Source of the DNA: a virus
DNA length: 56,139 nucleotides
Reading direction: 5' to 3' (one strand)
IMG/VR virus record: IMGVR_UViG_3300045988_062174
Shown: piece by piece, positions 1-56,139 of the stretch
How the letters are laid out: every line of letters begins with the position of its first letter
How positions within the stretch are numbered: position 1 is the first letter of the stretch
The notes under the pieces: model-generated
Seen by the model: the letters and a program-made list of their open reading frames with translations, nothing else
What the model was told of the DNA's origin: nothing
Database searches by the model: none
Program-made: the position numbers and the translations under genes

Positions 1-99
1 AGAGTATAAGCTGTTCGACCCGGAAACAGGACACGTTGAGTTGTTTGACCGGTGCATGAATGCGAATGCGCTGGTTGTTTGCTACCAGGAAAAAAAAAC
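1..99. repeat. Terminal overlap copy 1 (identical to 56041-56139); marks circular closure of a 56,040-bp genome
   Basis: Read directly: both copies run agagtataagctgttcgacc...gctaccaggaaaaaaaaac. The overlap lies inside an ORF and preserves its frame (56040 is divisible by 3). Confidence 0.95.
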
Positions 100-3524: not shown

Positions 3525-4982
3525 TTGAGAATTGCAAATATATTGAGAAAGGTGTTGAGAAGATTGGTGCCGAATAACAGTGTGGAAAAAGCCCTGGGCG
3601 TTGATATATGCGAATCCGGAGTAATGCAGAATGCCATAGAGCTGTGGCACAACATGTACAAGAATGAACCGCCCTGGAGAGGTGGAGAAGACAATGTGAT
3701 TCCTCTGAATCTGCCGGCAGCGATCTCGGAGGAATTTGCCAGGCTGATACTAACGGAGTTCAGCATGGAGGTAACTGGCAGTCCGATGGCTGCTTTCATC
3801 AATGAACAGTTGAAAGACCAGCTTACGGACTTGAACAAATTTGTTGAGATGTACTGCGAAGGTGGGGCTATTGCGGTAAAGCCGTTCGTGACGAACATAG
3901 ACGAAAACGGAAGACCAACGGCAATCGAGTTGGATTTCGTGAAAGCGGTGGATTTCTTCCCATGTGCGTTCAACAACAAGGGAGAGATAACGGCGGCGGT
4001 GTTTGTGGAAGGAAAGAAGATAGGAGATTACCTGTATACCAGGCTTGAATACCATGAGCTTACGGGAATGACCTATACGATCATCAACAAGGCGTTCAAA
4101 TCTGAGGAGATTTACCAGTACAACGATGATGGGACCTATGCTGTGAGGGATAGATTCCGGAAAGAAGTACCACTGTCTGAGGTGGATGAATGGGCGGGCC
4201 TGTCGGAAGAGCCGGTAATTATCGGTAACATCGACAAGCCACTTTTTGCGTACATCAAAGTACCAAAGGCAAACAATATCGATACGGATTCGCCATTGGG
4301 GGTATCAGTGTTCTCCAGAGCTACGGAGATAATAGAACAAGCTGACATTCAGTACGGGCGTGTATTGTGGGAGTATAAAGCCACAGAAGCTGCTATCCTG
4401 GGCGATTCTGAGTTGTTCCAGACAGATAAGCATGGAAAGCCGGTTCTTCCGGCAGGACAGGAAAGGATGTTCAAGACATTTGACTTCGACAATGCGGATG
4501 GAACTAACAAGGGGCTGCTGAAAGAGTATGCACCGCAGATTCGCCACGAAGCGTTGTTCCAGGGACTGAATAAGCTGCTAATGAAAATAGAGTTCCTGGT
4601 TGGTCTTGCCTACGGCACACTGTCTGAACCAACGGACATTGAGAAGACGGCATACGAAATCCGGGTATCAAAGCAGAGGTCATACCATACGGTAACGGCG
4701 ATGCAGGACGCATGGCATAAGGGATTTGAGAAAATCATATACGCCATGAGAGTTCTGGCGTTGCTTTATGATATGGTTCCAGACGGAGAAACGGAGCTGA
4801 ACTGCAACTGGGGCGATGGAGTTCTGGAAGACACAGAAGCTGAGTATCAGCGTAGATGGTCCATGGTGGTTGCCGGAAAGCTGAAAACAGAAGCGTTTCT
4901 CGCGTGGTATTTCGGATGCTCGGAGGAAGAGGCAAAGAACATGATGCCGGAGCCGGTAGCCAGATTTCCTACAGAAGAATAG
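3525..4982 (+). CDS. Portal protein
   Basis: 485 aa directly after terL, the usual size and position for SPP1-type portals. A TTG start is predicted. Confidence 0.8.
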   Translation: MRIANILRKVLRRLVPNNSVEKALGVDICESGVMQNAIELWHNMYKNEPPWRGGEDNVIPLNLPAAISEEFARLILTEFSMEVTGSPMAAFINEQLKDQLTDLNKFVEMYCEGGAIAVKPFVTNIDENGRPTAIELDFVKAVDFFPCAFNNKGEITAAVFVEGKKIGDYLYTRLEYHELTGMTYTIINKAFKSEEIYQYNDDGTYAVRDRFRKEVPLSEVDEWAGLSEEPVIIGNIDKPLFAYIKVPKANNIDTDSPLGVSVFSRATEIIEQADIQYGRVLWEYKATEAAILGDSELFQTDKHGKPVLPAGQERMFKTFDFDNADGTNKGLLKEYAPQIRHEALFQGLNKLLMKIEFLVGLAYGTLSEPTDIEKTAYEIRVSKQRSYHTVTAMQDAWHKGFEKIIYAMRVLALLYDMVPDGETELNCNWGDGVLEDTEAEYQRRWSMVVAGKLKTEAFLAWYFGCSEEEAKNMMPEPVARFPTEE

Positions 4983-4996
4983 GGGGGGTGTGAGCA

Positions 4997-6235
4997 GTGC
5001 TGACACCAGAATATTTGAATAGCTTTTCTTCCGGCTATCTGGGAATGTGCGATGTGCTGAATGAGCAGATCATCCGAGATGTGGCACGAAGGATAGCGAA
5101 GACCGGAAGAATTACACCGACAGCCGAGTGGCAGTTGAAGCAGGCAAAGCAGTCCGGAGCATTGATGAATGATGTAATCCGGGAGGTCGGGGTTCTGACT
5201 GGAAAATCCGATACGGAGATATTACGCTTATTCCAGGATGCAGGCTTGACCGGGATGTTGCAGGATGCAAAGCCGCTATTGCAGGCCGGAAAGCTGAAAA
5301 CCTCGGATATTGTTCTTTCTGGAGCGATGCAGAGGACCATGGAGGCAGCCGCAGAGAAGTGCAGGGGAGAGATTGGAAACCTTACGCTGACAACGGCGAT
5401 AGCCACACAGCAGGAGTATATGCAGGCACTGAACGCAGCCTATATGAAGGTTACGTCTGGTGCTTTTTCATACCAGGAGGCAATCAGACAGGCTATCCGG
5501 GATGCGGCAGTCAAAGGAACATCGGTCATGTATGACAGTGGGTATATCTCAAAGCTGGATACGGCAATCAGAACTGCTCTGCTAACCGGAGTAAATCAGA
5601 CAGCAGGAAAGCTGACGGAGTTGTATGCTTCGGAGCTTGGAGCTGAGTATTACGAGACAACAGCTCATGCAGGAGCCAGACCCTCACACTCAGTCTGGCA
5701 GGGCAAGGTGTTCAAGATTGAGGGCACAGCTCCGGGGTATGAGAACTTCTACGAGGCAACCGGATATGGAACAGGAGCCGGTTTGTGCGGTTGGAATTGC
5801 AGGCATAGCTTCTATCCGTACTGGCCGGGAGTTTCAAAACCGGCATACACGAAAGATGATCTTGAGGATTACAGCAGACCGAAGTATTCGTTTGCAGGGA
5901 ACCTTCTTACGGAGTATGAGTGTATGCAGAAACAACGGGAGTATGAAAGGGCAGTTAGGGAGTACAAGAGAATCCTGGCCGCCTATGATTCGTATATCCA
6001 GACGGTCCAGTCAGAAACAGACAGAGCGTACTTCCGGGAGGAGTTCCAGAAAGAATCTGTGAAGCTGAAAGAGAAGGAATCGCAGATGAAAGATTTCTGC
6101 AAGCAGACTGGACGGAGCATAGATACTGCCAGAACGCAGGTATCAGCCGTATATGACGGCAACGGTAACTTGGCATCATTTAACCACTCAGTCAGTGGAA
6201 AAGCTGTATGGGCGAATAAGAAAGCGAGGAAATAA
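4997..6235 (+). CDS. Minor head / head-morphogenesis protein (Mu F / SPP1 gp7 family)
   Basis: Motif GWNCRHSFYPYWPG is characteristic of the Phage_Mu_F domain. It follows the portal gene. Confidence 0.8.
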   Translation: MLTPEYLNSFSSGYLGMCDVLNEQIIRDVARRIAKTGRITPTAEWQLKQAKQSGALMNDVIREVGVLTGKSDTEILRLFQDAGLTGMLQDAKPLLQAGKLKTSDIVLSGAMQRTMEAAAEKCRGEIGNLTLTTAIATQQEYMQALNAAYMKVTSGAFSYQEAIRQAIRDAAVKGTSVMYDSGYISKLDTAIRTALLTGVNQTAGKLTELYASELGAEYYETTAHAGARPSHSVWQGKVFKIEGTAPGYENFYEATGYGTGAGLCGWNCRHSFYPYWPGVSKPAYTKDDLEDYSRPKYSFAGNLLTEYECMQKQREYERAVREYKRILAAYDSYIQTVQSETDRAYFREEFQKESVKLKEKESQMKDFCKQTGRSIDTARTQVSAVYDGNGNLASFNHSVSGKAVWANKKARK

Positions 6236-33279: not shown

Positions 33280-33302
33280 GCTTATTTTTTTTACCTGCAA
33301 GG

Positions 33303-35184: not shown

Positions 35185-35514
35185 ATGGCAAGTTTGAATG
35201 TTAAGACAGAGTATTCAGAGTATAAGGACTGTAAGTTAAGAGTCGGTAAGTATGTGGAAGACAATAGCGTTGCTGTTGAAATTTATAACAGATGGGATGG
35301 ACCTATTGCGAGAGTAACCACCTGCCTGTGCGACCATTCGTTGGCAGAAGATGAGGCGTATGTTGACACCAATAATTGCCCTTGGGCGGTAGCTCTTCTG
35401 GAAGAAAACGGATTTGCGGAGAGAACCGGGCGTACTCGGAGAAGCGGTTACTGCGAATATCCGGCAATGAAATTTGACAGAAGCAAGATGGCAGAGTTTG
35501 AGGAGGAAAGTTAA
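35185..35514 (+). CDS. DUF4313-like protein (109 aa)
   Basis: The pattern YVEDNSVAVEIYN...GPIARVTTCL...DTNNCPWAVALLEENGFAERTG...SGYCEYPAMKF resembles DUF4313 of conjugative elements. Confidence 0.5.
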   Translation: MASLNVKTEYSEYKDCKLRVGKYVEDNSVAVEIYNRWDGPIARVTTCLCDHSLAEDEAYVDTNNCPWAVALLEENGFAERTGRTRRSGYCEYPAMKFDRSKMAEFEEES

Positions 35515-35515
35515 G

Positions 35516-35953
35516 ATGGAGAGCTATAGAGAGTTAAGAGACAGACAGCAGAAAGAGTTCAATGAGCTGCCGTTGGGGTTTGCGTTCTCAGATAAGCAGT
35601 TTGATGAAATGATGGGAAAATGGGGACTTGACCCGGAGAAAGACCTGGATAAGATTTATCGGATTCCGGGCGGTGGATTCATCCAGAAGAAAGATCACAA
35701 GCATTTCCATGAGGTACTGGACCGGCACAACGCTGAGATGGAGGCGGCAAAGGCGGCCGATGAAGATGGAACAGGATTTCTTTACCAGATGTTCAAGTAC
35801 GAACTGGATAATCACGAGTACGGATACACCGGAGATCTTGAGGATACGCTGGATTGCTTAGGATTGACTTGGGAAGAACTGAAAGCGTCACCGGTAATGC
35901 TGAAAGCTCTGGATAAGGCTTCGACAGAAATCAGAGAAAGAGAGGGATGCTAA
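35516..35953 (+). CDS. Hypothetical early protein (145 aa)
   Basis: AGGAGGAAAG RBS before the ATG at 35516. Confidence 0.55.
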   Translation: MESYRELRDRQQKEFNELPLGFAFSDKQFDEMMGKWGLDPEKDLDKIYRIPGGGFIQKKDHKHFHEVLDRHNAEMEAAKAADEDGTGFLYQMFKYELDNHEYGYTGDLEDTLDCLGLTWEELKASPVMLKALDKASTEIREREGC

Positions 35954-37435: not shown

Positions 37436-37656
37436 AGATTGAACCGAGGAAAGAATCGGACAGAGGCGGTTGGCTGTGTATGCCGTTGTTAGCCAGTGTG
37501 CCGGAAGGAAAGGAAGGATGGGAAAAGGTGCGTTGCCCGGTATGTGGAGCACTTTGCTGGAAAAGACCGGAGGATGCAGGCGCGATTTGCCATAGCAAAC
37601 TCGACGGAGCGTGTTGTACGTTATGTGCTTTGAAGAAAGGAGCTGGCAGGTTATGA
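37432..37656 (+). CDS. Zinc-ribbon protein (74 aa; CPVC...CTLC)
   Basis: Cys pairs and ATGA coupling. Confidence 0.5.
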   Translation: MKIEPRKESDRGGWLCMPLLASVPEGKEGWEKVRCPVCGALCWKRPEDAGAICHSKLDGACCTLCALKKGAGRL

Positions 37657-38342
37657 AGAGAAGCGAGCAGATCGTAGAATTGATGGACGATGTAAAGAAG
37701 ATTATCTCACAGATGGCAGTGGTGGATGTATGTGAGGAAGAGAAGCCGGTAGAGGTTGGAAAAACCATCATGACAAGCCGGGAGGTGGCGGATATGTTCC
37801 AGGAATATCACTCGGTTACATATCGCAGAATCGCACAGCTTATCGTGGAGCTGGAACCGATGGAGCAGACAGAGTTCAAAATGGCACAGTTCAAGGCAAG
37901 ACACCAGGAGTACCCGATGTGGGAACTGACTGAAAAAGCCTGCAAGCTCTATCTGACGAGAATGAAAAGAGATAGATGCTACGGTAAAAAGAAGACCGGC
38001 ATTGAGAAGATGGAAAAAGAGCTTCGTTGCCGGGTAAGCGGTCAGAAACTGGTGGAGGATGCGGAGAACGGATATAAGGACGTCCGGGAACTGTTCAATC
38101 AGTTTATTACTGGTCCGAAGGGCGAAAACCGGGAAATTCCGGAACTGACGCAGGCCTACGAACGGCTGAGAGCGGTTATGGAAGCACAGGTTCCGGGTGC
38201 GAAAGCTGATACGGCGATAACGTCTGCGGTATACGATGTGGCGATAGAGTCAGAAATGCAGGGGTTCATTTACGGATTTCAGTTGTTCGGAGCGGTTCTG
38301 CAGGGATGTGGCAGCACAAGAAGATGTGCCGGAGAAAATTAA
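37653..38342 (+). CDS. Rha-like phage regulatory protein, putative
   Basis: The segment IMTSREVADMFQEYHSVTYRRIAQLI...YPMWELTEKACKLYLTRMK resembles the Rha family pattern. Confidence 0.45.
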   Translation: MKRSEQIVELMDDVKKIISQMAVVDVCEEEKPVEVGKTIMTSREVADMFQEYHSVTYRRIAQLIVELEPMEQTEFKMAQFKARHQEYPMWELTEKACKLYLTRMKRDRCYGKKKTGIEKMEKELRCRVSGQKLVEDAENGYKDVRELFNQFITGPKGENREIPELTQAYERLRAVMEAQVPGAKADTAITSAVYDVAIESEMQGFIYGFQLFGAVLQGCGSTRRCAGEN

Positions 38343-39219: not shown

Positions 39220-39516
39220 ATGATGGAACACAAGATCACAATCATGAAATATCAGACGATGTTTCCGGGGATGACAAAAAAGCTGTTCGATGAGAAAGAG
39301 AGATTCTATCAGATTGCAGTCATCAGCATCAGACTGGATGAACTCCAGACAAAAGGTGCGGTACTGCAGAAAATGGGAAAACCAACAAAGAGCGGCACTA
39401 GAATGACGTTTGCACCGGTGCGGAGTGCTGGAGAGTATGAGGCAGAGATGCAGAGGATTCTGGAAGACGGGAAAAAGCTGGGTCTGAAATTTGAAAAGAA
39501 AAAGGAGGAAAAGTAA
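39220..39516 (+). CDS. Hypothetical early protein (98 aa)
   Basis: GAAGGAGGG RBS. Confidence 0.5.
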   Translation: MMEHKITIMKYQTMFPGMTKKLFDEKERFYQIAVISIRLDELQTKGAVLQKMGKPTKSGTRMTFAPVRSAGEYEAEMQRILEDGKKLGLKFEKKKEEK

Positions 39517-40913
39517 TGGAGAGCAGTGAAGTTGTAAAAATCAGAGTGGAGAATATATATCCGCATCCGGATAATCCGAGAAAAGACCTCGGAGATGTGA
39601 CAGAGTTGGCAGAATCAATGAAGAAGCATGGAGTCATGCAGAATTTGACGGTTATTCCGGCGAGTGCATTGACAGCAGACCCGGAAGATCAGCCGGATGC
39701 TGATAAGGTTTCGGTAATCAGTGATTTCCATGTACTGATAGGACATAGAAGATTGGAGGCGGCAAAATTAGCAGGCCTGGTAGAAGTTCCATGCCAGATT
39801 AAAAGCAAGATTTCCCGGAAAGAGCAGGTAGGCATCATGCTGTTGGAGAATATTCAGCGTGAAGACCTTACCATCCAGGAGCAGGCCCAGGGATTCCAGA
39901 TGATGCTCGATTTGGGAGATACGGAAGACCAGATTGCAGAAAAGACCGGATTCAGTAAATCAACCGTCCGGCATAGGCTGAATATTGCGAAGCTGGACCA
40001 GGAGAAATTGAAAGAGAAGCAGCAGGACGATGCTTTTCAACTCACATTGAAAGACCTGTACGAACTGGAGAAAATCAAGGATGTAGAAATGCGAAATGAG
40101 ATTCTGGATAAGGCCAGCAGCTCCAGAGATATTGTGAGCCGGGTTCAGAACGAGATTACAAATGCTAAGAAGAAAGAGAACGCAAAGAAGCTCAAAGCGA
40201 AGCTGAAAAAGATGGGGGTAGAGAAAGCACCAGAGCAGTATTCCCAGCAGATGTACAATGGAAAGTGGAAAACGGTAATAGAGATTAACTTGACAGACGA
40301 TGTGCCGGATGAGATTGAACTGCCAGAGCAGAAAGGGCAGATGTACTGGTATGAGACATGGCGAGATTTGAGAATCGTTACGAAAGCTCCGAAGGAAAAG
40401 AAGAAGCTGACAAAAGAAGAGCTGGCGAAGAAAGAGCAGGATAGAAAGTCAAAAGAGGTAAAGGAAATTCTGAAAGGAAGTGCTGCCAGAAGAAAAGATT
40501 TTATCTCCGGAATTATTTCTGGAAAAATCCCGGCTCTTAAGGACGAAAACGCAGCGAGAGAAAAAATCTGGGAAGCCCTTGTGCTGATTGGTTACGGTCT
40601 GTACGGTTCGATTGCGAGAGGCTTTTTCCTGGAGGACGATGAGTGGAAGTACAGCGAAGAAGAGAGAAAGCAGGCAACTGAGACGTTCCAAGGATTGAGC
40701 ATCACACATCAAATGCTTGTGTTTCTGCATGGGTCGATGAATACGGTAGGAGAAACCTATGATTATAGCGGACGCTACGCCAAAGAAAAGGCGGATAAAC
40801 TGCTGAAAGGGTATGAAGCCCTCAAATTGTTTGGGTGGTTCTTTGAGATGGATGAGGAGAAGCGAGTTCTGGACGGAACAAGTGAGTTATTTGCACCTGC
40901 GGAAGAAAAGTAA
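39516..40913 (+). CDS. parB: ParB/Spo0J-family protein (465 aa)
   Basis: IENIYPHPDNPRK...VLIGHRRLEAAKLAGLVEVPC...LLENIQREDLT...IAEKTGFSKSTVRHRLNIAKL gives the ParB N-terminal boxes plus an HTH, followed by a long C-terminal extension. Confidence 0.85.
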   Translation: MESSEVVKIRVENIYPHPDNPRKDLGDVTELAESMKKHGVMQNLTVIPASALTADPEDQPDADKVSVISDFHVLIGHRRLEAAKLAGLVEVPCQIKSKISRKEQVGIMLLENIQREDLTIQEQAQGFQMMLDLGDTEDQIAEKTGFSKSTVRHRLNIAKLDQEKLKEKQQDDAFQLTLKDLYELEKIKDVEMRNEILDKASSSRDIVSRVQNEITNAKKKENAKKLKAKLKKMGVEKAPEQYSQQMYNGKWKTVIEINLTDDVPDEIELPEQKGQMYWYETWRDLRIVTKAPKEKKKLTKEELAKKEQDRKSKEVKEILKGSAARRKDFISGIISGKIPALKDENAAREKIWEALVLIGYGLYGSIARGFFLEDDEWKYSEEERKQATETFQGLSITHQMLVFLHGSMNTVGETYDYSGRYAKEKADKLLKGYEALKLFGWFFEMDEEKRVLDGTSELFAPAEEK

Positions 40914-41091: not shown

Positions 41092-41124
41092 AGCCAGGGG
41101 TGATTAAACCTCTGGCTTTTCTTT
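41092..41124. terminator. Bidirectional terminator hairpin between parB and int
   Basis: AGCCAGGGG-tgattaaa-CCTCTGGCT is flanked by a T-run on the + strand (TTTCTTT) and, on the minus strand, by TTTCTTC. The int stop codon lies in the loop. Confidence 0.6.
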
Positions 41125-42837
41125 GTAGATGAACGTATGAGATAATCCGTTGCGGAATGTAATAGAGTGAACGGCTCCGTCTTTGAAAACGATGTTGTCT
41201 ATGATGCTGCTGAGAAAAGAATCAAGGACCTCTGGAGAAACGGTAGCACTCAGCGATTGAAAGCTGACGTAATTTCGGTCAGTGAGCTTCTGGGAGAGTA
41301 TGAAGTTGCTTGCCTTGGCGATAAATTCATCATCAGTGATAGACTGTTGCAGGCTGTCTTCTGATGCCAGGAACGCCAACTTGTCCTCGACTTCTTCCAG
41401 GGAGTCCGAAAGCTGAATCTTCTGAGTGAGGTATTCGGATTCCGACATGGCTTTTTCGGAATAGAGGAACAGCTTGTTCAGACGGTCAATAGCTCTTTCC
41501 AGACGGACTTTTTCCTTTTTGAGTTTTGATAGCTGCAATGGCGGCTCGGAGCCTGTTTTGATTTTGACGTCTTTTCCGAAGACCTCTCCCTTGATGGTTC
41601 CGGTGCGGAGCGTATGAAACAGATCATGTAATCCGTCCGGGGCAATGGCGGCCACCGGGGAGAAAGTATCGCCGGAGAGTAGCTGCTGTTCCAGTTCCTG
41701 TATGCTCGTTTCCGGAGAGAACGCTTTTTGAGCGTTGAGCATATTGAGAATGTAGTTGAAGACGAACTCGCCAACGATTGGGTCTGAGGTAGATTTTCCG
41801 GTACACCACAGCTTGCTTTTTCTGTGCGTAGGGCAGAAGTAGAGAGAATAGCGTCTGCCAGTAGTCTTCTTTATGGTGGAAATGGAACTGGTCATAGGTT
41901 GACCGCAATTTCCACAGATGAGCAGGCCGGAGAAAATGTGCGTGTATTTGCTCTTGCCACTCTTACGAAATGATTTGAGCCTGCGGTTGGATTCCAGGAG
42001 TGCAAGGATACGTTCTTTCTGTTCTCGGCTTACGATGGCCGGGTGGTGGTCTTTCACGGTAATCCATTCGGATTTATCCTTAGGACGTTGCCGGTCCCCT
42101 TCCTTAAGGCGGTTGTACTGGTAATCGCCGCAGTAGAATACGCTGCGAAGAATAATATCCAGAGAGACAGGAGACCAGTCATTACCGGCACGAGTCCGGT
42201 AGCCATGTTCGTTCAGATACCGGGCCAGGTAAACCAGGGAGCGGAGTTCTTCGTATTTGTCATGAATCAGATGGGCGATGTTGTACTCGTCGGAGTTGAA
42301 GCTGAAAGCCTGTTCCTCCGGGTCATAATCGTAGCCGTAAGGAATACGTCCGCCGTTCCACTGCCCGTTGCTGGCTCTGGAAATCATAGTGGCAGTGACA
42401 CGTTCCGAGGTCATGTTACGCTCCAACTCCGCAAAGACAAGGATAATTTTGAGCATCGCTTCTCCCATAGCCGTACTGGTGTCGAATTGCTCGTTTTTCG
42501 AGACAAAGGTAACGCCCAGGTTTTTAAGCTCCTGGTACATCTCTGCAAAGTCCAGAAGGTTTCTGGAGATGCGGTCAATCTTCCAGACCAGCAGATGCGT
42601 GTACGTGCCGGTCCGAAGCTGAGACATCATTTTCTGAAATTCTGGCCGGATGGTATTTTTGCCAGAGTACCCGGCATCCTCGAAGATTGTCACATCGTCA
42701 GTGTTCAGTATCAGCTTGGCGTAGGCAATCAAATCTTGACGCTGCATAGGCAGAGAGTCCCTGTCGATCTGATGCAGTGTAGAGACTCGTATGTAGATAG
42801 CCACTTTTGCGTGAGTGGCAGCACTGTTTGAAATCAT
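41104..42837 (-). CDS. int: Large serine recombinase (integrase)
   Basis: 577 aa. The N-terminal resolvase motif is KVAIYIRVSTLHQIDRDSLPMQ, followed by a recombinase domain, a zinc ribbon (CGNCGQ...FCPTHRK) and a coiled-coil C-terminus. Confidence 0.92.
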   Translation of the reverse strand: MISNSAATHAKVAIYIRVSTLHQIDRDSLPMQRQDLIAYAKLILNTDDVTIFEDAGYSGKNTIRPEFQKMMSQLRTGTYTHLLVWKIDRISRNLLDFAEMYQELKNLGVTFVSKNEQFDTSTAMGEAMLKIILVFAELERNMTSERVTATMISRASNGQWNGGRIPYGYDYDPEEQAFSFNSDEYNIAHLIHDKYEELRSLVYLARYLNEHGYRTRAGNDWSPVSLDIILRSVFYCGDYQYNRLKEGDRQRPKDKSEWITVKDHHPAIVSREQKERILALLESNRRLKSFRKSGKSKYTHIFSGLLICGNCGQPMTSSISTIKKTTGRRYSLYFCPTHRKSKLWCTGKSTSDPIVGEFVFNYILNMLNAQKAFSPETSIQELEQQLLSGDTFSPVAAIAPDGLHDLFHTLRTGTIKGEVFGKDVKIKTGSEPPLQLSKLKKEKVRLERAIDRLNKLFLYSEKAMSESEYLTQKIQLSDSLEEVEDKLAFLASEDSLQQSITDDEFIAKASNFILSQKLTDRNYVSFQSLSATVSPEVLDSFLSSIIDNIVFKDGAVHSITFRNGLSHTFIYKEKPEV

Positions 42838-42889
42838 ATTTTTCCTCCAAAAATACGCCGTCCCATTACAGAACGGCGCATGTTCATTT

Positions 42890-43465
42890 CTACGCCCTTT
42901 TAGTCGGGCAATTCAATATTACATCCCTTAATCCGGCAAAATCCGTTATGTAAGGTTTTAGAGCTTTCAGCGAATTAAGAGAAATATTTTTCTGGTTGGG
43001 CTTTTGCTCGTTGAGCACATAGGTAGGCAACACATAGAACTCCCAGTATTCCAGGGCAAGCGGCGAGACGTCTTTTGTCAGTGCTTTGTAAAGGCAAAAA
43101 ACGTAGAGGTCAGAATGACGCTTGACGTCCGGAGAATATCCGGCTTTCGGGTCCCAGGCTCTGTGAGGTGCTATGCTGAACTGTATATGCTCGTGGTACG
43201 CTTCATCCCAGGATTGGAGATAAGAAGCGGATTTGACTTCGATTCGCTGTCCGGTAGGACTGGTCAAATCAAAGGGGAGCCAATCAGTTCGCATTTTCGA
43301 ATCGGGGGGGGGTAATAACGCACTGTGTACTATGTATTCTGCAAGTACGCCCCGGTCTGTGTTGTTGAGCAGATCACTGTAAGCCCAGGACCAGAAATCT
43401 ACTACCGACAAGCCGGTGTCTTCCCCATGAAAAGTAAATTTGTTATTGGATGTTAATTGCTCCAT
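42890..43465 (-). CDS. PD-(D/E)xK-like nuclease-fold protein (191 aa), lysogeny-module moron
   Basis: Candidate catalytic pattern AEY...PFDLTSPTGQRIEVKSASY (E...D...ExK). It overlaps the upstream gene by 13 nt and contains a C9 tract. Confidence 0.6.
   Translation of the reverse strand: MEQLTSNNKFTFHGEDTGLSVVDFWSWAYSDLLNNTDRGVLAEYIVHSALLPPPDSKMRTDWLPFDLTSPTGQRIEVKSASYLQSWDEAYHEHIQFSIAPHRAWDPKAGYSPDVKRHSDLYVFCLYKALTKDVSPLALEYWEFYVLPTYVLNEQKPNQKNISLNSLKALKPYITDFAGLRDVILNCPTKRA
43304..43312. repeat. Homopolymer G9 (C9 on the coding strand) inside the nuclease-like gene
   Basis: Read directly as atcgggggggggtaat. It encodes the PPP of ALLPPPDSK. Confidence 0.95.
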
Positions 43466-43776
43466 GCAGGAATCCTCCCTTCGCAGAGAGAGGCTATGCC
43501 ATGGATGTTGCCGCCAAGAGCAAAGACCAACGCCCGGCGGCAGTCGGTGTCTGTCAGAATATCGGAATAGGTATGGACCAACGGCAAGAACTCACGAACC
43601 GAAAGTGAGAGTTTCTTCCGCAGGTGTGCTATTTTGTTAATTGTTCCGGCAGACAGCGATGCAGGCCCTTCCTCCAGAGAAGAACAGAAGGAAGAGAGAT
43701 AGAGCAGTAGAGCCGCAGCATCGCAATTCAGTTGTTCTTCGGTCCGGGCCAGGAAAAAGTATTTCTTTGAGTCCAT
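43453..43776 (-). CDS. Hypothetical protein (107 aa), partner of the nuclease-like gene
   Basis: AGGAGGG RBS. It lies 41 nt downstream of the repressor gene on the same strand. Confidence 0.5.
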   Translation of the reverse strand: MDSKKYFFLARTEEQLNCDAAALLLYLSSFCSSLEEGPASLSAGTINKIAHLRKKLSLSVREFLPLVHTYSDILTDTDCRRALVFALGGNIHGIASLCEGRIPAWSN

Positions 43777-43817
43777 AAGCCCTCCTGTCCGGTATCATCT
43801 GAAACGACGATACCAAT

Positions 43818-44195
43818 CTAAACGGATAATCTTTTTTCACCGTCAAGGTATTTCTTGCTTTCCTCAAGAGCTTTGAGGTAGCCCTTCATTTCCCCTTTAA
43901 ATTCATAACGCTTTTCTGTTGGCAGAGCCTTGTAAATACTCAGCAGCTCCTTCTCATCATCGGTGTAAGTTTCGGTCTGGACGTCAGTGTAAGCAGATTC
44001 TTTTCCGGTCAGAATGTAGTCGGTAGAGACGTGCAGAAACCGGGCAATGTCTGCGATGTATTTAGCTGGCGGCAGAGTGTTTCGAGCCTTCCAGGTAGAG
44101 TAGGAAGACTGGTTAATGCCAAGAAATTTGCACAGTGCATAAGGCGTTTGCTCCCTCTGTTCGAGAACTGTTTCGATTCTGTCGATTGCTTCCAT
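43818..44195 (-). CDS. cI-like XRE-family repressor
   Basis: The HTH reads TPYALCKFLGINQSSYSTWKARNTLPPAKYIADIARFLHVSTDYILTG. It is divergent from the Cro-like genes. Confidence 0.8.
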   Translation of the reverse strand: MEAIDRIETVLEQREQTPYALCKFLGINQSSYSTWKARNTLPPAKYIADIARFLHVSTDYILTGKESAYTDVQTETYTDDEKELLSIYKALPTEKRYEFKGEMKGYLKALEESKKYLDGEKRLSV

Positions 44196-44267: not shown

Positions 44268-44370
44268 ACAATCACAAGCTACAAATGATTCGCAAATGGG
44301 AAGTGCTAAATCGCATAAGTAGTTTGTGATTGCGTATGTAGTGTACGTTTGTACCGTTAAATTGTATCAT

Positions 44371-44389
44371 TTTACTTCGAGAAAGTAAA
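44371..44389 (+). promoter_or_regulatory. Hairpin / inverted repeat TTTACTT-cgaga-AAGTAAA in the leader of the rightward operon
   Basis: 7-bp perfect arms. It contains a TTCGAG half-site. Confidence 0.4.
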
Positions 44390-54788: not shown

Positions 54789-55289
54789 ATGGGAATTTAT
54801 ACGAGCAGATATAGCAACAAAGAGCTTGCAGATGGCAAATATTACTGTGTAGGAATCAGCATCGGGACGCCGAAATTCAAACTGGCGTACAGACTGGAAA
54901 ACCAGTGCTACTCACTGGCACCGAAAGGGTATATGCTGAGAATGAACCTGGAAGATTTCAAGAAAGCCTATTACGAGAAGCTGAACGGCATAGGCAAGGA
55001 CAGAATCATCAACATGGTTATGAAGATGGAACGTGACGCATCGGCCCAGGGAAAGGATTTGGTCCTCCTGTGCTACGAGGACGTGAGAATCCCGGAAGAT
55101 TGGTGTCACAGAACTGTTTTTGCTGAGTGGTGGGTGGAGAACACTGGAGAGATTATCGAAGAACTTCCAGACCCGAATCCCCCGAAGGGAAAGAAGGTAG
55201 CAACGACAAGTAAGAAGCCCGAAGTGCAGACGAAGCCGGATGATGGCTACCAGCAAATGAGTCTGTTTGGTATGGGCGCTTTAATATAA
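54789..55289 (+). CDS. DUF488-like protein (166 aa), uncertain
   Basis: The N-terminus MGIYTSRYSNKEL...VGISIGTPKF resembles a DUF488 subgroup. GGAAAAGGAG RBS. Confidence 0.4.
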   Translation: MGIYTSRYSNKELADGKYYCVGISIGTPKFKLAYRLENQCYSLAPKGYMLRMNLEDFKKAYYEKLNGIGKDRIINMVMKMERDASAQGKDLVLLCYEDVRIPEDWCHRTVFAEWWVENTGEIIEELPDPNPPKGKKVATTSKKPEVQTKPDDGYQQMSLFGMGALI

Positions 55290-55435: not shown

Positions 55436-56139
55436 ATGGCATTTTTCAGAGACCCAGGAGAGATGTTCTTGGGATGCTTGGGTACGGTGGAGCAGAGATA
55501 CTTGGTAAATCTGATAAAGAATGCTGCGAAGAACGGGTATACGAGGTTCGTAGAGCCATGTGCCGGAACATTCGCCATGAGCAATCTGGCAATCCAGAAT
55601 GGGTATAAGCCGGAGCAGATCGAGACAAGCGATGTGTCTATGATGAGTTCGGTTATGGGGTATGCCATTACGGGCAAGCCGCTTGACGAACTGGAGATAC
55701 ACGCCCAGAGCTTTTCTGATGAGGAGCTGTTGGACCCGGCAGTTGCCTTGTATGCTCAGATGTATCTTAGAACATCGAAGACAGCCGGTAACGAGTATTT
55801 CTTTAATCTGCTGAAAGATTTGAGAGACAGAAGAGAGGAACACATTGAGCATATCCGGCAGAGTTTAGAGAACATCAAGAAGGAAATGTACGGTATGACA
55901 TACCGACCGTTGGATATGTGGGATCATCTGGACGAGGTGCTTGACGATCCCCACACGCTGGTTATTGCCAATCCGCCGACCTACTTCTCCGGCTATGAGA
56001 AGTTCTATGACACACAGGGGAAAATGACCTGGAAGGAACCAGAGTATAAGCTGTTCGACCCGGAAACAGGACACGTTGAGTTGTTTGACCGGTGCATGAA
56101 TGCGAATGCGCTGGTTGTTTGCTACCAGGAAAAAAAAAC
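55436..56139 (+). CDS. N-terminal part of a Dam-like N6-adenine DNA methyltransferase (open at the window end; continues at base 100 via the circular junction)
   Basis: My own translation from the ATG at 55436 gives the SAM motif FVEPCAGTFA (from 55547) and the catalytic NPPTY (from 55970). There is no stop before the end of the window. Confidence 0.8.
   Translation, partial: MAFFRDPGEMFLGCLGTVEQRYLVNLIKNAAKNGYTRFVEPCAGTFAMSNLAIQNGYKPEQIETSDVSMMSSVMGYAITGKPLDELEIHAQSFSDEELLDPAVALYAQMYLRTSKTAGNEYFFNLLKDLRDRREEHIEHIRQSLENIKKEMYGMTYRPLDMWDHLDEVLDDPHTLVIANPPTYFSGYEKFYDTQGKMTWKEPEYKLFDPETGHVELFDRCMNANALVVCYQEKK
56041..56139. repeat. Terminal overlap copy 2 (identical to 1-99)
   Basis: Direct comparison. 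Confidence 0.95.

Follow-up and report, generated by a model that had tools for sequence, protein, structure and literature searches.

A candidate phase-variable restriction-type nuclease encoded behind the repressor of a temperate phage of gut Lachnospiraceae

What do two small, overlapping genes between the repressor and the integrase of a temperate phage do? The question is raised by a 56,139-nucleotide (nt) stretch of viral DNA (IMG/VR record IMGVR_UViG_3300045988_062174), the whole of which is called the window here. On its minus strand, open reading frames (ORFs) A and B lie between the genes for a cI-like repressor and a large serine integrase, and a reading made from the sequence alone (hereafter, the sequence-only reading) had proposed that they form a two-gene defense or exclusion module. 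Our analysis centers on B. We give an even chance to the reading that B is a stand-alone restriction-type nuclease, expressed in lysogens and directed against incoming DNA, that A modulates it, and that a poly-C tract inside B makes it phase-variable.

Both A and B are real genes and not chance ORFs, because each has relatives (2,104 for B at E ≤ 1e-3 and about 20 cluster representatives for A) and an AlphaFold model with a predicted local distance difference test score (pLDDT) of 85. The features of the two genes, with lengths in amino acids (aa), are as follows:

43453..43776, minus strand: ORF A, 107 aa, six-helix protein resembling tetratricopeptide repeats (TPR-like); small family, alignment, and model with pLDDT 85
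42890..43465, minus strand: ORF B, 191 aa, predicted PD-(D/E)xK endonuclease with a PvuII/BisI-like fold; homologs, alignment, and model
43232..43339, minus strand: catalytic core of B (E43 at 43337–43339, D66 at 43268–43270, E76 at 43238–43240, K78 at 43232–43234)
43304..43312, minus strand: nine consecutive C (C9) on the coding strand (G9 on the plus strand), coding for P52–P54 of B; candidate phase-variation switch

The restriction-endonuclease-like signature that the sequence-only reading had noticed in B holds up in both the alignment and the predicted fold. The motifs AEY (E43), PFD (D66), and IEVKS (E76 and K78) supply a catalytic tetrad that is present in 80 of 82 homologs from varied genomic contexts. 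In a 41-sequence alignment, E43 (AE[FY]), D66 (P[FY]D), and E76 and K78 (IEVK) are invariant, together with several tryptophans. The AlphaFold model (predicted template modeling score, pTM, 0.84) places these residues on helix 37–49 and on strands 67–68 and 74–81, as expected. A Foldseek search with the model against the PDB returned NhoI, the N-terminal domain of Eco15I, and PvuII as the top matches (E 4e-6 to 1e-3; template modeling (TM) scores 0.43–0.57; probability 1.0), all of which are PD-(D/E)xK restriction enzymes. Carrying both the motif and the modeled restriction-endonuclease-like α/β fold, B is assigned to the PD-(D/E)xK nucleases. The Foldseek matches in BFVD are weak and mostly unnamed phage restriction-like proteins, and searches of the PDB sequences with single sequences and with a B profile gave chance matches only. 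Two homologs in prophages of Roseburia/Acetatifactor metagenome-assembled genomes (MAGs; L042 and L045, B at 4989–5573) carry D66S and K78Q; judged from these substitutions, they look like catalytically dead copies kept in a repressor–B–serine integrase layout.

A crude motif scan of 75 ORFs of the window, together with a Pfam search of about 16 of its proteins, recognized no methyltransferase. Across 25 diverse B loci, no methyltransferase recurs as a neighbor; one Type I enzyme (N6_Mtase) is present. A Type III Mod subunit adjoins B in a separate clade (L059–L073), where it belongs with its own Res subunit. As far as these scans reach, B is not encoded with a cognate methyltransferase, as a nuclease of a Type II restriction-modification (R-M) system is, and it has the stand-alone layout of a Type IV enzyme. 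The best structural matches (PvuII and the 5-methylcytosine-dependent BisI-family enzymes NhoI and Eco15I) are small dimeric PD-(D/E)xK enzymes. PvuII works with a cognate methyltransferase, whereas B has none nearby. BisI-family enzymes need no methyltransferase, cut DNA with modified cytosine, and have the catalytic site PD-QxK (PMC11347163). The site of B is E76-V-K78 (ExK), and the B profile did not find NhoI, Eco15I, or PvuII among the PDB sequences even at E ≤ 10. Although the fold is shared, B is therefore not a member of the BisI family. Its sequence does not place it in a named defense family either, in agreement with the sequence-only reading; neither A nor B matches any system component in PADLOC-DB 2.0, even at E ≤ 1.

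A different likeness links B to T4 DenB (endonuclease IV), which is of similar length (about 185–190 aa) and has the motifs in the same order and spacing: an AE[FY] helix, then D, then R[IV]EVK[ST]. In a profile–profile comparison, for which a DenB family alignment was built, hhalign paired DenB E62, D89, and E102-x-K104 with the B tetrad; this match is weak (probability 9.5%, E 0.0034, 54 columns) and covers the motif region only. No named T4 DenB occurs among the top 50 BFVD structural matches of B, about 20 of which are nameless. Many B relatives have precomputed weak matches to PF26887 (Phage_T4_End_IV), and the exact window protein has no Pfam match on record. The sole studied enzyme of PF26887 is T4 endonuclease IV, and a literature search on the family returned nothing. 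T4 endonuclease IV tells DNA substrates apart by their cytosine modification, and in single-stranded DNA it acts on C-tracts (PMC1635256, PMC2095790), which it prefers (PMC2095790). The two genes differ in setting: DenB is expressed early by a virulent phage whose DNA is modified, and B is found in a temperate phage's lysogeny operon and in the chromosomes of bacteria. We propose, tentatively and at well below even probability, that B represents a new family of stand-alone restriction-type nucleases distantly akin to T4 endonuclease IV, and that the poly-C tract carried by the phage makes its expression stochastic, so that lysogen populations would hedge immunity to foreign DNA against its cost.

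The tract itself corresponds to codons 52–54 of B (PPP, CCC CCC CCC) and is the longest G/C homopolymer in the 56-kb genome. CCC is the rarest proline codon in the long genes of the phage; since it accounts for only 2.8% of their proline codons, three in succession are expected at a frequency of about 2e-5. In the protein, the tract corresponds to a loop of variable length, modeled with low confidence, that connects the E43 helix to D66 and thus precedes D66, E76, and K78. Orthologs at 55–70% identity have 6–12 C at the same place in differing codon registers, and interrupted tracts such as CCCCTCCCCC are also found among them. IMG/VR and metagenomes supplied 31 near-identical copies (97–100% nt identity), of which 21 have C9, five C10, three C8, one C7, and one an interrupted 10-nt tract. 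Among these copies only C9 keeps the frame, and the remainder of the gene is intact in all of them. More generally, C6 and C9 keep the frame, whereas C7, C8, C10, and C11 break it. Exact look-ups of the predicted proteins in public assemblies found out-of-frame alleles on more than 1,300 contigs, isolate genomes among them. The products are distributed as follows:

In frame, C9: full-length protein of 191 aa on at least 1,000 contigs
Out of frame, C8: fragment of 66 aa on 752 contigs; these include one of 4.6 Mb and a multispecies Lachnospiraceae record of RefSeq
Out of frame, C10: fragment of 60 aa on 435 contigs, a Blautia isolate among them
Out of frame, C11: fragment of 67 aa on 137 contigs
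Truncated at the tract by the contig end: product of 54 aa on 509 contigs
In frame, C6: protein of 190 aa on a few contigs (four listed for one member)

The association between tract length and disruption was also examined in 80 unique B genes with A upstream. Among the 42 unique orthologs with a tract of at least six nucleotides, 16 are split exactly at the tract, compared with none of the 37 with shorter tracts (Fisher p 8e-6; locus L035, whose split is spurious, was counted as intact and left out of both groups). B thus has a homopolymer inside its ORF that varies from C6 to C11 among near-identical genomes, with both frame states present. This polymorphism is the pattern of a contingency locus and looks like phase variation; within a lineage, the tract would switch reversibly. 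R-M genes that vary in phase through homopolymeric tracts are known from Haemophilus, Neisseria, Helicobacter, and Campylobacter. B shares with them an in-ORF homopolymer whose in-frame and out-of-frame lengths coexist among near-identical strains, and it differs in belonging to a temperate phage of Gram-positive gut anaerobes and in being a stand-alone nuclease gene without a methyltransferase. Our literature search found no described phase-variable prophage nuclease and nothing relevant on prophage defense in Lachnospiraceae. Control runs of 7 nt of A or T were all stable, but with four to six observations these controls are too few and too short to be decisive. A separate homopolymer, T8 at window positions 33285–33292, also differs in length: just two related contigs span the site, and both have T7.

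Could the variation instead reflect sequencing and assembly errors together with the decay of a dispensable gene into a pseudogene? Short-read assemblies are prone to errors in homopolymer length, which could contribute to the observed polymorphism, and out-of-frame alleles that have become fixed could represent pseudogenes and not states of a switch. Some out-of-frame contigs have a coverage of only 1–3x, the 509 contigs that end at the tract show that assemblers struggle there, and two loci (L138 and L140) have 1-nt deletions beside the tract and not within it. Against this stand the out-of-frame alleles in isolate genomes, in the RefSeq multispecies entry, in contigs of up to 4.6 Mb, and in a MAG at 92x coverage (L039). 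Every disruption maps to the tract while both halves of the gene are otherwise intact, and the tract is kept at the DNA level, in differing registers at 55–70% identity and despite the rarity of CCC; the interrupted forms also occur. We therefore consider it improbable that error and decay account for the tract variation, an explanation that does not exclude the other readings.

A second poly-C tract bears on what such tracts are for. In the clade in which an ImmA-type domain is fused to B (described below) and in the Faecalibacterium phage FP_Brigit, a TAC(7–13) tract lies at the 3' end of B (nt 562–568 of B in L028, L032–L034, L036–L038, and L040; 4603–4612 in L186, FP_Brigit). Its length differs between species and alters the C-terminal tail only. 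A search for polymorphism of the FP_Brigit-type tract found only one further contig. Such a tract cannot be an on/off switch and may indicate a role beyond switching. By analogy with T4 endonuclease IV, B may itself recognize C-tracts, and the TAC(n)G tracts in or beside the B genes of the two clades may be its own target or a regulatory site. In FP_Brigit, the annotated B ORF reads through a terminator-like hairpin into the start of the integrase gene. In L028, L032–L034, L036, L037, and L040, a conserved stretch with GGTACTGG-type short repeats lies 3' of the poly-C, about 60–150 nt downstream of B. It translates as MVLVLVLVLVTSDFP in one frame; a small ORF, an RNA element, and a portion of an attachment region are all conceivable identities.

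Whether B would be made in a lysogen depends on the surrounding signals, which are arranged as follows:

44361..44389, minus strand: promoter-like site upstream of the repressor, TTTACT-17-TACAAT with TG; consensus match only
43818..44195, minus strand: cI-like repressor, 125 aa, helix-turn-helix (HTH) domain and short C-terminal tail, without an S24 peptidase domain; PF07022 E 3.9e-8
43790..43815, minus strand: 10-bp hairpin in the repressor–A spacer, without a U-run; dG −14.3 kcal/mol, z −3.1
43780..43785, minus strand: ribosome-binding site (RBS) of A, GGAGGG; read from sequence
42848..42881, minus strand: 12-bp hairpin (42853–42881) followed by a U-run (42848–42852); dG −18.4 kcal/mol, z −3.1
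41104..42837, minus strand: large serine integrase of 577 aa; domains Resolvase, Recombinase, and Zn_ribbon_recom

The repressor also matches PHROG repressor families, with weak matches to DicA and RstR. The sequence-only reading had described two ORFs that overlap by 13 nt between the repressor and the integrase, and a 41-nt spacer with a hairpin and a good RBS, and all of its coordinates were reproduced; the spacer spans 43777–43817. The ATG of B lies within the last codons of A (overlap 43453–43465) and is preceded by a AGGGAGGA RBS inside the end of A, an arrangement that suggests translational coupling. From the repressor to B, a consensus scan detected neither promoter-like nor terminator-like sites, in line with the earlier remark that the spacer holds no obvious promoter, and divergent promoter-like sites are confined to the repressor/cro intergenic region. 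The hairpin and U-run that begin 9 nt past the stop codon of B, just ahead of the RBS of the integrase, resemble an intrinsic terminator that closes a repressor–A–B unit and would separate integrase expression from it; the simple consensus scan gave no terminator call for this element. Since promoter-like sites occur only in the repressor/cro region and the hairpin with its U-run follows B, the transcription unit is probably repressor–A–B, and the site at 44361..44389 is its presumed promoter. The pair, being co-oriented with the repressor, is thus probably expressed in lysogens, as the sequence-only reading had supposed from the short spacer without an obvious promoter. That reading had overlooked the C9 tract, the hairpin after B, and the restriction of A to one clade.

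GGUAC/GGUAUC-type hairpins stand at the same spot, directly after the repressor stop codon, in diverged relatives (L001, 5656–5678; L008, 4626–4651; L022, 4643–4666; L017, 4619–4640), with differing inner stems; no comparable hairpin follows the repressor in L002. The recurrent element could be involved in RNA processing or attenuation, or could be a palindrome bound by a protein.

The lambda rexAB genes resemble A and B in being accessory genes directly downstream of a prophage repressor, so that both pairs would be made in lysogens. RexAB is a membrane-depolarizing abortive system; it has no homology to B, which has the features of a nuclease.

The proposal that A and B act as a two-gene unit did not survive the survey of homologous neighborhoods. 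B follows A in all 59 assessable A loci (IMG/VR loci with enough downstream sequence), but A is present in only 27 of 80 species-representative B genomes, all 27 of them in the closest B clade. The A-less sister prophages have the order repressor–B–integrase, which is also found in the isolated FP_Brigit, and relaxed searches detected no hidden A in the sister prophages. As the A-less copies of B keep their catalytic residues, A is an accessory of B specific to one phage clade rather than an obligate partner or antitoxin, and the pair is not an obligate two-gene system.

The same survey bears on a toxin–antitoxin or addiction role, in which A would curb a toxic B and the pair would stabilize the prophage or trigger abortive infection upon loss of A. 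The gene overlap with its suggested translational coupling and the constant presence of B beside A speak for this role. Expression of T4 endonuclease IV, which represents the Pfam family with the weak matches, kills Escherichia coli (PMC1635256), and a gene that is costly to its carrier would be expected to suffer frameshifts as often as B does. However, a toxin should always be found with its antitoxin, whereas catalytically intact B occurs without A in 53 of the 80 species-level loci, including close prophages and solitary chromosomal copies. The A–B spacing is not conserved, with gaps of 8, 15, and about 180–290 nt in relatives, and A matches no antitoxin family. Such a role is accordingly unlikely. 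The group with the 180–290 nt gaps consists of the IMG/VR phages L147–L180, in which A ends at about 4291 and B starts at about 4474–4585.

The surroundings of distant B homologs are where the defense proposal finds its footing. A recurring non-phage island has the order Type III Mod, Res, B, and GmrSD. Single B loci lie beside a complete Gabija system (GajA/GajB), beside a Type IV restriction enzyme with an Nhi/AbiO-like gene, beside mad3 (MADS-like), and beside an HKD–Snf2 helicase gene. Solitary chromosomal copies occur in several phyla, and B is common in bacterial chromosomes outside prophages. The idea of a defense module, put forward in the sequence-only reading, is thus plausible for B from its genomic company, although not as a two-gene unit.

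Two further candidate functions were discarded. The sequence-only reading had named homology to a phage replication nuclease as a finding that would speak against it; since the phage carries RecT and a DUF3799 exonuclease separately, and near-identical copies of the phage also RusA, B is not a replication or recombination nuclease. The order repressor–(A)–B–integrase persists with either tyrosine or serine integrases, which argues against a role in excision, and B also occurs outside prophages, so that it was rejected as an excisionase or recombination directionality factor.

A link with prophage induction is raised by a sister clade. In six species (L028, L032, L033, L036, L038, and L040, at about 4707–5640, including the closed genome of Blautia producta DSM 2950), an 88-aa ImmA/IrrE-type Peptidase_M78 domain (HE[IL]GH) is fused in frame to the N terminus of B behind an HTH repressor. 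This sister clade thus resembles the repressor–protease pairs ImmR–ImmA (of ICEBs1 and Bacillus prophages) and CapH–CapP: its HTH repressor is followed by a Peptidase_M78 domain, which takes the slot that A has in the window. It differs from them in that the peptidase is fused to B, and A itself has neither HExxH nor profile similarity to the peptidase; A was rejected as a relative of the ImmA-like domain (hhalign probability 1.2%). On this view, A and/or B would not defend against other phages but would respond to damaged or single-stranded DNA and bring about induction through the repressor. The repressor, lacking the S24 self-cleavage domain, would fit such a switch, as would the layout of the fusion (HEIGH in the A slot), which mirrors the immR–immA–int arrangement of ICEBs1. 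On the other hand, B homologs occur in non-phage defense islands with no repressor nearby, strict conservation covers the catalytic residues and not only DNA-binding surfaces, sister prophages lack A, the phage has a separate Rha-type regulator, and the frequent out-of-frame alleles would disable induction. A lysis–lysogeny switch therefore has little probability in our assessment. In one sister prophage (L016, 4697–5023), the A slot holds a second HTH protein of 108 aa between the repressor and B.

A lytic-cycle nuclease like T4 DenB, which would degrade host DNA or block its replication after induction to the benefit of the phage, is very unlikely: the weak PF26887 matches of relatives and the alignment of the catalytic motifs with DenB are outweighed by the position of B, which follows the repressor on the strand of the lysogeny genes, has the early lytic genes on the other strand, and is closed by a terminator-like hairpin of its own, by the lack of any sign of a genome-sparing DNA modification within the motif scan and the Pfam search of selected ORFs, and by the many B homologs in bacterial chromosomes outside prophages.

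The reading of B as a lysogen-expressed restriction-type nuclease can be laid out as a sequence of steps. In a lysogen, the repressor promoter would drive a single repressor–A–B transcript that ends at the hairpin after B. B, whose fold is PvuII/BisI-like and which has no methyltransferase as a partner, would then act as a metal-dependent PD-(D/E)xK endonuclease and protect the lysogen from incoming foreign DNA. Its targets would probably differ from host DNA in modification or in form or strandedness, which would make B Type IV-like or, as with T4 endonuclease IV, active on single-stranded intermediates. A may be a modulator, an adaptor, or a brake on B, which persists without it. Slippage at C9, in a loop that seems permissive, would toggle full-length B on (C6 and C9) or off (C7, C8, C10, and C11), and lysogen populations would then be mixed for nuclease expression.

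Several points count against this proposal, in addition to the assembly errors, the possible pseudogenes, the 3'-end tract, and the weak DenB alignment described above. Searches of local Pfam, PADLOC, PHROGs, and NCBIfam matched no model to B, whose family assignment rests on the modeled fold and a four-residue motif. The promoter calls are bare consensus matches, whose number in the region equals the expectation from shuffled sequence. Many neighbors of distant B homologs are housekeeping genes, and the association of these homologs with defense islands is suggestive. The ingredients of the proposal, namely prophage-borne defense, restriction nucleases without a methyltransferase, and phase variation at homopolymers, are known, and the family is otherwise uncharacterized.

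Whatever its role, B is widespread in the human gut, where the phage is extremely common. If B is a defense nuclease, a large uncharacterized family of more than 2,100 clusters would gain a function, and a compact single-gene system would join the defense catalog. If the phase variation is real as well, B would be, as far as our literature search reaches, the first prophage-borne restriction-type gene in gut Firmicutes to vary in phase at a homopolymer; this would be relevant to the way in which lysogens trade off immunity against gene flow and damage to themselves. The clade-specific A and the alternative fusion to an ImmA-like peptidase constitute a natural experiment on the regulation of such nucleases. 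If B is not a defense gene, the ImmA fusion would point to an unrecognized link between nucleases and prophage induction.

The A family, represented by about 20 sequences at 50% identity, has conserved positions that include E14, A22, Y26, K48–I49, Y70, and L83. The six-helix model of A gave only insignificant TPR-like Foldseek matches in the PDB (E ≥ 0.7). Sequence searches with A were negative in local Pfam, PADLOC, PHROGs, and NCBIfam as well as in the INPHARED phage collection.

The phage as a whole is a complete temperate phage of human-gut Lachnospiraceae that integrates beside queA through the large serine integrase. A 99-bp terminal direct repeat (window positions 1–99 and 56041–56139) identifies the window as a circularly assembled phage genome, complete at about 56.0 kb. 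Genes for terminase, portal, tail, and lysis functions lie at 739–29117, and the early genes wrap around the window ends. Long bacterial contigs also encode a B protein identical to that of the window, and in them the integrase gene is next to the host genes queA-pheT-pheS, so the phage is truly temperate. Named sources of the identical protein in public records include Mediterraneibacter gnavus and Coprococcus comes, and a C-terminal fragment of B is named in Blautia hansenii. An index of public assemblies has the exact protein in about 3,200 blocks, and the 90%-identity cluster of B has 1,655 member sequences. Other accessory genes of the phage encode the Rha-type regulator (Phage_pRha, 37611–38342), a DUF7659 protein (35474–35953), a protein with a weak DUF488-N3a match (54789–55289), and a 465-aa ParB_N and HTH_ParB protein (39516–40913) that adjoins the attachment side. 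In the relatives L004 and L006, PAPS_reduct and ParB_N occur at the equivalent place.

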